The notes under the pieces: generated by a model | Told to the model about the DNA's origin: nothing | The model's input: only the letters and a program-made list of their open reading frames with translations | Databases searched by the model: none | Shown: positions 38,669 through 40,337 of the stretch, piece after piece | Layout of the letters: each line of letters begins with the position of its first letter | Position numbering within the stretch: position 1 is the first letter of the stretch | Translations under genes and position numbers: made by a program | DNA from: Tequatrovirus LF73P3 | Strand: one strand, 5' to 3' | Length of the DNA: 64,000 bases | Sequence record: OZ035756.1

Positions 38669-38756
38669 TTAAAATCCTTGAAATAATTTATCGGTTGGTT
38701 ATTAATTATTTATTACTTTGTTATTATCCGTAACAGCATTCTCTATGTGATTCAAA

Positions 38757-38792
38757 CTAAAAAGCCCCAACCTTTCGGTCGGGGCTAAGCCT
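38757..38792 (-). terminator. strong rho-independent terminator ending the tRNA/stable-RNA transcription unit
   Basis: Minus strand GCCCCGACC-GAAA-GGUUGGGGC (9 bp stem) followed by UUUUUAG. Confidence 0.75.
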
Positions 38793-38794
38793 TG

Positions 38795-39090
38795 CGGCAA
38801 CCTTGTCGGGGTTCCACCTGCTAAGGCAAGTGTTTGTACGAAACGCCGGGATTCGAACCCGGTTATTAAGCAGTTGACGCTACTCAATATTTTTAAAAGG
38901 CCATATCTCGACCATATCCGAACGTTCCGTCAAAAACGCTACTCGGCTTACGGCAAAGATATTTCCTCGAATCGATAATTCGATGCGCCGTTTCTGCTGT
39001 GATAGTAAAGAATCAGAACACAGTAAAACTGTGGGAGAAACTATACTCCAGGGAACATCAGTCCGACGACTTACCGGTAGCGACCCGGTT
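38795..39090 (-). ncRNA. candidate small stable RNA(s) with tRNA-like T-arm (not a canonical tRNA)
   Basis: Minus strand CCGGG-UUCGAAU-CCCGG T-arm-like hairpin at 38845-38865, locally GC-rich, between tRNA-Arg unit and the terminator. Confidence 0.4.
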
Positions 39091-39092
39091 TC

Positions 39093-39443
39093 TTAATATT
39101 CTTTTAAAGCATCAATCTGTTCACGACGTTTACGCCATAAATCAATTGCTTCATACGCAGATTCAGCATTTCGAATTGGACGGCATTTATATAAAGACTT
39201 GTGATTTTGATATTGTGTAGATAATGGAATTTTATCTAAAAGGTCTTTACGTTCAAAGTATTCGTAACCATCTAAACCAAATGAACGATTTTTGAGAAAT
39301 TGCCAATGACCATATTCATTTTCGACATAAACATAATCCGCGTGTTGATAAAGCAAATTAATTACACGTTCAGAAATAACAGTGTCATTGTGATTAAAAT
39401 AAAATGTTAAATCATGAACTACTAAATAAACATTACCTTTCAT
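39093..39443 (-). CDS. hypothetical protein within tRNA region
   Basis: 116 aa ORF starting 17 nt downstream of tRNA-Arg. Confidence 0.45.
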   Translation of the reverse strand: MKGNVYLVVHDLTFYFNHNDTVISERVINLLYQHADYVYVENEYGHWQFLKNRSFGLDGYEYFERKDLLDKIPLSTQYQNHKSLYKCRPIRNAESAYEAIDLWRKRREQIDALKEY

Positions 39444-39459: not shown

Positions 39460-39535
39460 TGGTCGAGGCAGTAGGGATCGAACCTACGACCTAGGACTTA
39501 GAAGGTCCTTGCTCTTCCTTCTGAGCTATGCCTCG
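39460..39535 (-). tRNA. tRNA-Arg (anticodon UCU)
   Basis: Cloverleaf by hand: 7-bp acceptor CGAGGCA/UGCCUCG, anticodon loop CUUCUAA, T-loop GGUUCGAUCC, encoded CCA. Confidence 0.85.
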
Positions 39536-39538
39536 TAG

Positions 39539-40204
39539 TTAAAATTTCATTTTTCGACCTTTAAACCATCCTTCTGGAATTGGGTCAGTTTTCTTAATAC
39601 GTTTAGAAACTTTTTCATCTAATGAATGAATCCACATCATACCAAATTGGGAATTCTTTTCACCTTTTTGGTGATTATTTTTAGCGTGAATTTCTTTCAT
39701 TTTATTAATAGTTTCAAGAGTATGATGCTTATTTAAAAATCGGCTATTATTTAAAAATTTTTCTTTGTATTCAGGAGTTGACCACAAACGTTTAAATACA
39801 TTTGAACCATTTTTACGATATTTTTCTTGAAGTAAAATATCATTTTTAAAACGTGACTTAAACGATTTAGCTCCTTTTAAACTAGCGTCTTTCTTCTGAT
39901 TTAGCATCTCAGGAATATTTATATGATCCCATCCACCTTCACCGCCAAGTTTTAAATTATACACATCAGGTCTATTTAAAAACTCTTCTGTGACAATATT
40001 TTTCTCGGCTTCAAGCATAGATTCTTTATCGTCAAAATATTCTAATATTTCTTTAGAAAAATTTTCTATACCATACCTGTCTTGGGCTCTTTTTAATAAT
40101 TTACCAGAACCCATATATCCATCATCTAAATTTTCGGTAGAATGCACACCAATATAAATTTTATTATTAATTTTATTTGTTATTTTATAAAGATAAAAAT
40201 GCAT
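39539..40204 (-). CDS. segB: GIY-YIG homing endonuclease SegB
   Basis: 221 aa from MHFYLYKITNKINNKIYIGVHS (GIY-YIG) ... GYMGSGKLL; track ORF N-extension runs into tRNA genes. Confidence 0.8.
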   Translation of the reverse strand: MHFYLYKITNKINNKIYIGVHSTENLDDGYMGSGKLLKRAQDRYGIENFSKEILEYFDDKESMLEAEKNIVTEEFLNRPDVYNLKLGGEGGWDHINIPEMLNQKKDASLKGAKSFKSRFKNDILLQEKYRKNGSNVFKRLWSTPEYKEKFLNNSRFLNKHHTLETINKMKEIHAKNNHQKGEKNSQFGMMWIHSLDEKVSKRIKKTDPIPEGWFKGRKMKF

Positions 40205-40250
40205 ATCAGTCCCTAATAAAGAACTGAGCGTCTCACGACGAGTCATAAAT

Positions 40251-40337
40251 TGGTGGGGAGTGATGGAGTCGAACCACCCGAGTCGCAATGACAATGGATT
40301 TACAGTCCACACCGCTACCTCTACGGGATAACTCCCC
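40251..40337 (-). tRNA. class-II tRNA with anticodon GUA (tRNA-Tyr-like)
   Basis: Hand fold: perfect 7-bp acceptor GGGGAGU/ACUCCCC, anticodon loop CUGUAAA, long variable arm, T-loop UUCGACU, encoded CCA. Confidence 0.6.

Follow-up and report, generated by a model that had tools for sequence, protein, structure and literature searches.

Two small stable RNAs of phage T4 have been known since the 1970s. In the T4 reference genome (NC_000866), they are annotated as two misc_RNAs located directly 3' of the gene for the transfer RNA (tRNA) tRNA-Arg and are called rnaD ("species 2 RNA") and rnaC ("species 1 RNA"). Both were reported as discrete, late-accumulating RNAs of unknown function (PMC3014915, PMC9697503), and the discrete species 1 RNA was seen by Northern blot (PMC9697503). 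The T4 tRNA operon transcript of ~1.75 kb terminates after the species I gene, as described in the SegB paper (PMC2330249). Here we analysed a 64-kb stretch of Tequatrovirus LF73P3 (OZ035756.1; hereafter the window), concentrating on the interval 38757-39090, whose features lie on the minus strand. This interval very probably represents the distal end of a tRNA operon, composed of the orthologues of rnaD and rnaC (non-coding stable RNAs), a trailer, and a rho-independent terminator. Both RNAs are already known as entities, being annotated in T4 and T2L, and are ordinary for any T-even-type genome.

The 551 bases around the interval match 761 phage records with an identity of up to 98.5%, and a 336-nt core is present in 812 records (coverage of at least 80% in 679) with an identity of up to 99.7%. 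Because the matches belong almost entirely to Tequatrovirus and its relatives at high identity, the window is assigned by similarity to a T-even-type phage. Its minus-strand tRNA cluster, as called by ARAGORN, includes Gln, Leu, Gly, Pro, Ser, Thr, Met, Tyr, and then Arg at 39460-39535. Positions 39096-38758 of the minus strand are colinear with T4 from the rnaD start through rnaC and a 48-nt trailer to the terminator, and are near-identical to it except in the middle of rnaD. The T2L record (AJ880101) has the same layout as the window: tRNA-Arg, the 116-aa trna.2 coding sequence (CDS), rnaD, and rnaC. In T2L, rnaC is annotated from CGAUUCG to GUACA (140 nt), which corresponds to 38974-38835, and the rnaD of T4 and T2L corresponds to ~39096-38981. 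Covariance models (CMs) built from the relatives gave exactly one match each in the window: R1 for rnaC at 38835-38974 (159.6 bits, E = 1e-36) and R2 for rnaD at 38980-39097 (117.7 bits).

On these grounds the 140-nt rnaC (38835-38974) is assigned by its full-length homology to the annotated T4 and T2L rnaC and its place at the distal end of the tRNA operon. For rnaD (~116 nt, 38981-39096), the assignment is based on the homology of its 5' and 3' parts to T4 rnaD and on its location immediately upstream of rnaC, the same criterion as in the T2L record. An earlier note, made from the sequence of the window alone, supposed that small stable RNAs of the T4 tRNA region were located here and proposed an alignment to the two T4 species; this identity is supported by the common layout and by a base-for-base match to rnaD, rnaC, and the downstream terminator. 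The note did not see that there are two separate RNAs, that the T arm is part of a complete mimic of the acceptor and T arms of a tRNA, or that rnaD carries a hypervariable arm.

The rnaC of the window and the T4 species 1 RNA occupy the same operon position and are ~97% identical over 140 nt, sharing the acceptor stem, T arm, and 3' end; they differ in point changes only, e.g., a U.G pair of hairpin 3 in the window versus U-A in T4. The T4 species 2 RNA has the same 5' 50 nt and 3' 25 nt as rnaD of the window (the elements P1, UAAGU, Pa, Pb, and CCCUG) and also lies immediately upstream of rnaC, whereas its central arm is unrelated in sequence. This arm is the sole part of rnaD diverging from T4, and the window has the T2-type arm, homologous to that of T2L. 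The 3' ends of rnaD are ...GCGCACCA in T4 and ...GCGCAUCGA in the window. In T4, rnaD is located 1 nt after tRNA-Arg, while in the window it is preceded by the 116-aa open reading frame (ORF), so that both trna.2 and rnaD separate rnaC from tRNA-Arg, as in T2. This ORF (39093-39443, minus strand), which lies between tRNA-Arg and rnaD and is absent from T4, is the trna.2 of T2L (phrog_3355, E = 1e-54); it has no Pfam domain, and it overlaps the conserved leader of rnaD, UUAAGAAAC, with its stop codon.

The GC content is 0.42-0.47 over 38700-39100 versus 0.25-0.35 in the flanking coding DNA (0.45-0.55 in the tRNA cluster), in agreement with the GC-enriched minus-strand stretch described in the earlier note. 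The RNA folding suggested there demonstrated that the 336-nt stretch is more stable than its shuffled versions (z = -4.79; none of 100 shuffles was as stable). Neither ARAGORN nor the Rfam tRNA model called a tRNA in 38757-39090, and the only Rfam match in the interval at E <= 10 was a sub-threshold one to tRNA-Sec (16.6 bits versus a gathering score of 47). No family of Rfam 15 covers rnaC or rnaD, either in the window at gathering and relaxed thresholds or in seven other loci at relaxed thresholds.

The fold of rnaC was derived by RNAalifold and pair counting and tested on an alignment of 20 sequences. The homologues came from Tequatrovirus, Karamvirus, Tegunavirus, Gelderlandvirus, and several IMG/VR contigs, and the more distant ones, found with the CM, from the large contigs L176 and L254 (L numbers are ours), Pectobacterium phage PM2, and Klebsiella phage Kp122. 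Pattern scans of IMG/VR with 14-16 specified bases or variable gaps gave mostly chance matches, which were filtered. According to the resulting model, rnaC is a 140-nt tRNA mimic, in which a long hairpin and a 10-bp hairpin stand in place of the D and anticodon arms. The 5' strand of the acceptor stem (CGAUUCG, 38968-38974) pairs with CGUUUCG at 38845-38839. It is followed by a long irregular hairpin in the D-arm position (38898-38967, apical loop UUGACG at 38933-38928), an A/U-rich linker, the 10-bp hairpin 3 (38864-38889, loop CGUCAA at 38879-38874), one unpaired base, the T arm (38846-38862), the 3' strand of the acceptor stem, and U-ACA at 38835-38838, which occupies the tRNA-like N73-NCA position and coincides with the annotated end in T2L. 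The T arm is the perfect hairpin CCGGG-UUCGAAU-CCCGG pointed out in the earlier note and found at 38862-38846; it is 100% paired among the homologues, and two of its five pairs covary (CCUGG/CCAGG, CUUGG/CCAAG).

In the consensus, 93.3% of cells are paired versus 36-48% in slid controls, and changes on both sides occur in 38 of the 52 pairs, a value reached by none of 500 shuffles. Helices 2-4 of the long hairpin are 93-100% paired with many double changes. The stem sequence of this hairpin is replaced in Gelderlandvirus and in L136 with its length and loop preserved, and the length of rnaC remains constant at 139-144 nt even in such cases. Folding of rnaC alone gives z = -4.17 for the minus strand versus -0.05 for the plus strand. 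These comparative data, together with those for rnaD given below, indicate that both folds are under purifying selection.

The acceptor stem contains two central U.U mismatches in the T-even (including the window), Karam, and Gelderland versions, with a compensatory G-C in Karamvirus; in Tegunavirus, PM2, and Kp122, all of its pairs are Watson-Crick. Four divergent homologues (L176, L254, PM2, and Kp122) end with U-CCA, a true tRNA end, and the Tegunavirus version with U-UCA. The acceptor stem is preceded in most homologues by U at position -1, the residue preferred by RNase P. In two homologues (L133, 5958-6098; L149, 4201-4341), the T loop is UGCAUGC instead of UUCGAAU with helices and kissing loops intact, suggesting that the standard tRNA elbow is not universally required. 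An "anticodon-like" CU-NNN-AA string in the linker was considered and rejected, since it is not part of a stem-loop, and Kp122 and L136 do not retain it.

As judged from this alignment, rnaC has the tRNA-like top half: a 7-bp acceptor stem continuous with a 5-bp T stem and a 7-nt T loop, followed by N73-NCA. The absence of a full cloverleaf, stated in the earlier note, agrees with the lack of a tRNA call; the statement is incomplete in that the 7-bp acceptor-type stem, supported by covariation, closes a cloverleaf-like four-way junction. The coaxial acceptor and T stems, the UUCGAAU loop, the discriminator with NCA/CCA, U at -1, and the location within a tRNA operon bring rnaC close to tRNAs and to the tRNA-like domain of transfer-messenger RNA (tmRNA). 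However, rnaC lacks the D arm, the anticodon arm, and the 7-nt anticodon loop of a tRNA, and its kissing-loop body is absent from both tRNA and tmRNA. It also differs from tmRNA by having A-U instead of G3.U70 as pair 3-70, no resume codon or tag ORF, and an ACA end, and the interval contains neither an ARAGORN tmRNA call nor an above-threshold Rfam match. YrlA (RF02553) has no match in the interval at E <= 10, and the ends of rnaC form an acceptor stem rather than a Ro-binding helix. rnaC thus belongs to none of these three groups. In Enterobacter phage KKP_3262 (L005, 2547-2642), a 96-nt "tRNA-Phe(gaa)" given by GenBank and ARAGORN represents the 3' two-thirds of an rnaC homologue.

The tRNA-derived form of the T arm and acceptor stem, the ACA rather than CCA end, the two U.U mismatches, and the dispensability of rnaC in Dhakavirus might be expected if these RNAs were decaying tRNA pseudogenes at the cluster end, transcribed but functionless. 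We regard this explanation as highly improbable because the structure is under purifying selection in at least seven genera, as seen from the 38 covarying pairs, the unvarying length, and the invariant loops complementary to one another, because the rnaD core is conserved across three phage subfamilies, and because one rnaD change restoring a base pair was adaptive (see below).

The mutually pairing loops deserve separate consideration. UUGACG of the long hairpin (38933-38928) and CGUCAA of hairpin 3 (38879-38874) are the sole two invariant hairpin loops of rnaC and are perfectly complementary over 6 bp. Across the 20 sequences, 99.2% of these pairs are retained, with compensatory changes at two of the six, although the kissing helix was outside the CM used for collecting the homologues. 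The loops are UUGACG and CGUCAA in T-even phages and most others, UUGAUG and CAUCAA in Tegunavirus, UUGGCG and CGCCAA in L176/L254, and UUGCAG and CUGCAA in Kp122, while PM2 retains four of the six pairs. A covarying 6-bp kissing interaction between the long hairpin and hairpin 3 is thus predicted. We did not find it described in the accessible literature, which did not extend to the structural papers of the 1970s, and do not claim its novelty. Intermolecular pairing of the UUGACG loop with CGUCGG of rnaD was rejected since Kp122 alters the rnaC loop and not rnaD.

rnaD is organised differently: it appears to consist of a 5' hairpin, P1, and a long hairpin (Pa-Pb-arm), the distal arm of which is exchanged wholesale between related phages. 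Its 5' end is approximate, overlapping the stop codon of trna.2, and its 3' end is ...CGGCG-CAUCG. P1 (CCGG-GUCGCUA-CCGG, 39074-39088) has a covarying stem: CAGGG/CCCUG in 536P1, UCGGG/CCCGA in W70, and UCAGGA/UUCUGA in Karamvirus. It is followed by UAAGU (39073-39069), the Pa 5' strand CGUCG (39064-39068, pairing with 38990-38986), the Pb 5' strand UGUU (39057-39054) together with the internal-loop strand CCCUG (39053-39049), the hypervariable T2-type ("type A") arm (39004-39048) with the apical hairpin CACAG-UUUUA-CUGUG at 39033-39019, the Pb 3' strand AGCA (38998-38995), the joiner GAAA (38994-38991), and the Pa 3' strand CGGCG (38990-38986).

Pairing in rnaD was counted on a structure-blind MAFFT alignment of 29 distinct sequences. 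Pa (CGUCG/CGGCG) is paired in all 29, and its closing pair is changed from G-C to C-G in six of them. For Pb (UGUU/AGCA here), pairing amounts to 95.7%, and each of its four pairs shows compensatory changes; the whole model is 88.5% paired versus 34-47% when slid. UAAGU before Pa and the CCCUG strand are essentially invariant (C, U, and G of the latter being invariant columns). At least five unrelated arm types are combined with the same core, including the T2 type (the window), the T4 type, the JS98 type, and the W70/Karam type with a conserved 20-nt loop. Arm types are unrelated between close relatives and do not track the phage phylogeny, and the apical module of the T2 type, CCCACAG...CUGUGUUCUG, is found again in 536P1, PBES02, and PM2. 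Several earlier versions of the rnaD fold were discarded. The first Pb model (CUG/CAG and AUG/CAU with a CA bulge, also the minimum free energy (MFE) structure of T4) was replaced by UGUU/AGCA, which covaries at all four pairs, and a pseudoknot between the P1 loop and the 3' tail fits 536P1 and is broken in W70. K-turn, loop-E, RNase P RNA (CR-I/CR-V-like strings), and signal recognition particle-like readings did not fit in a comparison made by eye only.

Other variants of rnaD were observed among the relatives. In class-2 homologues (L127, 1430-1592; L042; L136, 5995-6200; L149; L128, 1190-1356), the 7-nt P1 loop is replaced by a ~75-nt domain that includes the conserved strings CCAAGCUGGUAAUG and AGCCCAGAUGGAUG and is enclosed in a covarying long-range helix (GAGGG/CCCUU, GCGGU/ACCGU, AGAG/CUCU). 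PM2 carries two rnaD-like copies. The conserved 20-nt arm loop of the W70/Karam type (GAGUUCCCUCAACGAUAAC; L008, 2535-2570, from W70, and the Karamvirus loci) may resemble both termini of the type I-E CRISPR (clustered regularly interspaced short palindromic repeats) repeat of E. coli without its hairpin, with one mismatch in W70.

The strings CUGA[U/A]G and GAAAC flank Pb in the T-even, Vequintavirinae, and Stephanstirmvirinae versions, which recalls the hammerhead-like CUGAUG ... GAAAC of a self-cleaving ribozyme. Such an identity of rnaD is hardly credible. The strings are flanked by only two helices, with no three-way junction, and Pb engages UG of CUGAUG in base pairs; the Karam and Jiaoda versions lack the motif, and no Rfam ribozyme family matches at E <= 10. 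Another possible analogy is provided by the hairpin-type RNase P substrates with an ACC(A/C) tail, namely the 4.5S RNA precursor and the C4 RNA of phages P1/P7. The likeness is in outline only: rnaD is essentially a long irregular hairpin with C-ACC(A/C/G) after its closing helix in most lineages; there is no sequence similarity, rnaD has an extra 5' hairpin, and the ACC tail is absent in the Karam/Jiaoda rnaD and altered in the window (CAUCG).

A hint about the role of the rnaD arm comes from phage BW-1 (97.7% identical to the window). Its lines adapted to host ECOR34 acquired a single convergent single-nucleotide polymorphism (SNP), placed in rnaD, with virulence on this host rising from 0.17 to 0.98 (PMC12685909). 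The SNP at position 164264 of the deposited genome is T>C, i.e., A>G at nucleotide 74 of rnaD. It converts CACAG-UUUUA-CUAUG into CACAG-UUUUA-CUGUG, restoring a C-G pair in the apical hairpin of the arm and lowering the predicted MFE from -25.9 to -31.0 kcal/mol. The adapted allele is the one already present in the window and in T2L. Because the stem pair is restored, this single experiment argues that the folded arm, rather than a single-stranded seed, matters in a host-specific way.

The same observation bears on the possibility that rnaD, and perhaps rnaC, is a trans-acting base-pairing small RNA whose variable arm serves as an antisense seed against host or phage mRNAs. A hypervariable modular arm on a constant scaffold would suit such a function, and the literature calls these molecules late "small regulatory RNAs" (PMC9697503). 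Nevertheless, this explanation seems unlikely to us: the arms are largely base-paired, the adaptive change in BW-1 repairs a stem pair and does not alter a single-stranded stretch, rnaD has no Hfq-type 3' end, and there are no matches in 5,426 E. coli genomes at E <= 10, though short seeds would escape this search. The same BLAST result led us to discard host mimicry and long antisense.

Downstream of rnaC, the transcript continues into the 48-nt 3' trailer of the operon (38787-38834), conserved in T4, with a 7-bp hairpin CACUUGC-CUUA-GCAGGUG at 38832-38815. The predicted intrinsic terminator of the operon (38758-38786) follows: its hairpin AGCCCCGACC-GAAA-GGUUGGGGCU occupies 38786-38763, the U run ends at 38758, and the whole is conserved in T4 and T2L. 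It is the best site in a terminator scan of the region and corresponds to the usual features of intrinsic terminators, a G+C-rich stem-loop with a U tract right after it, located where a transcription unit ends. The earlier note correctly placed a GAAA loop and U5 at the end of the tRNA unit, while its "9-bp GC" stem proved to have 10 pairs, seven of which are G-C. The trailer and terminator together give a fold z of -4.57.

This arrangement raises the possibility that the whole region is a purely cis-acting 3' module, protecting the precursor from 3' exonucleases and carrying the processing and termination signals, with the "RNAs" as by-products. In T-even phages both RNAs are indeed flanked by the last tRNA on one side and the terminator on the other, the cis nature of the trailer and terminator is clear, and the trailer is retained where rnaC is lost: in Dhakavirus (L007, 2498-2700, which is ESCO10; L027, L088, L109, L123), rnaD, the trailer directly 3' of it, and the terminator are kept, and rnaC is precisely absent. 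The wider distribution of the homologues makes this explanation quite improbable. rnaC and rnaD homologues are always found inside or adjoining tRNA clusters, and those of Karam-, Gelderland-, Jiaoda-, and Mosugukvirus, Vequintavirinae, and Stephanstirmvirinae are located in the middle of a cluster, far from terminators. rnaD reaches wider than rnaC, occurring in Mosig-, Dhaka-, Karam-, Jiaoda-, and Mosugukvirus, Vequintavirinae (W70, PBES02), and Stephanstirmvirinae (536P1), so that its core spans three phage subfamilies. Phages outside Tevenvirinae have rnaD only, while at the loci of Tegunavirus (L004) and Gelderlandvirus (L009), rnaC is not accompanied by rnaD within 2.5 kb. From their distribution, the two RNAs are independent modules. 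Moreover, they accumulate as discrete species, and protection of the precursor would leave the conserved kissing loops and the modular arm unexplained.

In Karam-, Jiaoda-, and Mosugukvirus, a conserved non-coding stretch of ~130 nt is located 3' of the rnaD-like core, before tRNA-Asp (L124, 1585-1720, Citrobacter phage CkP1; L003, L005, L125, L126, L128). It starts with the hairpin CCGAAAG-UUAU-CUUUCGG, has no Rfam match, and may represent another structured RNA.

Two ORFs of the gene track, considered probably non-coding in the earlier note, overlap the interval, and both are open in the window: 61 aa (38702-38887, minus strand) and 73 aa (38999-39220, plus strand). If they were translated, the interval would encode small proteins, which we consider practically excluded by comparison with the relatives. 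The 61-aa ORF begins within rnaC and reads through the terminator; it is disrupted by a 1-nt indel and stops in five close relatives (L047, L057, L021, L092, L007), and its substitutions are even across codon positions with no third-position bias. The 73-aa ORF is antisense to trna.2 and rnaD, has stops in four relatives (L038, L140, L141, L057), and cannot exist in T4. A conserved protein-coding signal, looked for among the relatives, was found in neither ORF, and the frameshifts, stops, and even or reversed codon-position pattern indicate that neither is coding. Many other records place "hypothetical protein" CDSs over rnaC and rnaD.

Some differences were also observed in the neighbouring part of the operon. 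A 222-aa GIY-YIG homing endonuclease (39539-40207, minus strand; phrog_314, E = 3e-50; Pfam GIY-YIG) is located between tRNA-Tyr and tRNA-Arg, exactly at the place where T2L and BW-1 carry tRNA-Asn, which is absent from the window. The SegB cleavage site lies in the tRNA-Asn gene (PMC2330249). The tRNA-Tyr (40256-40335, minus strand) scores 30.2 bits versus the Rfam tRNA gathering score of 29, while the other eight tRNAs score 54-75 bits.

How might these RNAs be formed? We suppose that rnaC and rnaD would be cut from the ~1.75-kb operon transcript by the host tRNA-maturation machinery and then accumulate as stable RNAs. The 5' end of rnaC would result from an RNase P cut at 38975|38974, at the base of the acceptor stem just after U at -1, and its 3' end from an endonucleolytic cut in the trailer followed by 3' trimming or repair by the CCA enzyme. 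This proposal is based on the tRNA-like ends, U at -1, and the position in tRNA clusters, as well as on the T4 processing literature of the 1970s-80s. Literature searches for function or processing details (p2Sp1) gave nothing beyond "unknown".

As for function, we tentatively suggest that rnaC and rnaD are non-decoding accessory RNAs whose folds bind or titrate host factors and thereby tune phage fitness on particular hosts. rnaC would bind these factors by imitating the top half and 3' end of a tRNA, while rnaD would present a host-specific arm on a constant scaffold. Several points weigh against this interpretation and the fold models behind it. The RNA ends are borrowed from the GenBank annotations of T4 and T2L, which disagree by 1-2 nt. 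In the window, rnaC ends with ACA, not CCA, and its acceptor stem has the two U.U mismatches, so that tRNA-like processing or charging is not assured; the kissing interaction requires a bend in the 27-bp hairpin, and its geometry is a prediction only. rnaD alone is thermodynamically weak (z = -1.68), and the comparative Pa helix in the window lies 2.1 kcal/mol above the MFE. For the BW-1 SNP, other modes of action are conceivable, e.g., via a weak terminator-like hairpin or the stability of the 3' end of trna.2 mRNA. Finally, BLAST (E <= 10) detected no similarity of these RNAs to the 5,426 E. coli genomes.

A more specific and somewhat more speculative version is that rnaC and rnaD are RNA-based devices for host interaction or counter-defence. 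Phage tRNAs are known to act as counter-defence against tRNA-targeting immunity, e.g., T5 tRNAs versus PARIS or retron effectors. rnaC and rnaD resemble them in being accessory, located in phage tRNA clusters, and of host-dependent benefit (BW-1). However, those are decoding tRNAs replacing the cleaved host ones, whereas neither rnaC nor rnaD is able to decode, and a decoy role is hypothetical. If it were realised, rnaC locked by its kissing loops would titrate a host factor attacking or sensing tRNA ends, and the rnaD arm would be a host-range determinant swapped by recombination and tunable through changes of one base pair, like that of BW-1 on ECOR34.

The function of these RNAs has been open for ~50 years, and most of the ~800 related phage records leave rnaC and rnaD blank or under "hypothetical protein" ORFs. 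Since neither RNA has an Rfam family, models such as R1 and R2 would improve phage annotation by removing spurious ORFs and a spurious "tRNA-Phe". The value of the presented analysis consists in a covariation-backed fold of rnaC with tRNA-type ends and a predicted kissing loop, and in the organisation of rnaD as a core with a swappable arm across three phage subfamilies. The only adaptive mutation published for either RNA brings back a base pair in a stem of the rnaD arm, and the fold models together with the BW-1 link make the question of their function in T-even and related phages more directly testable.

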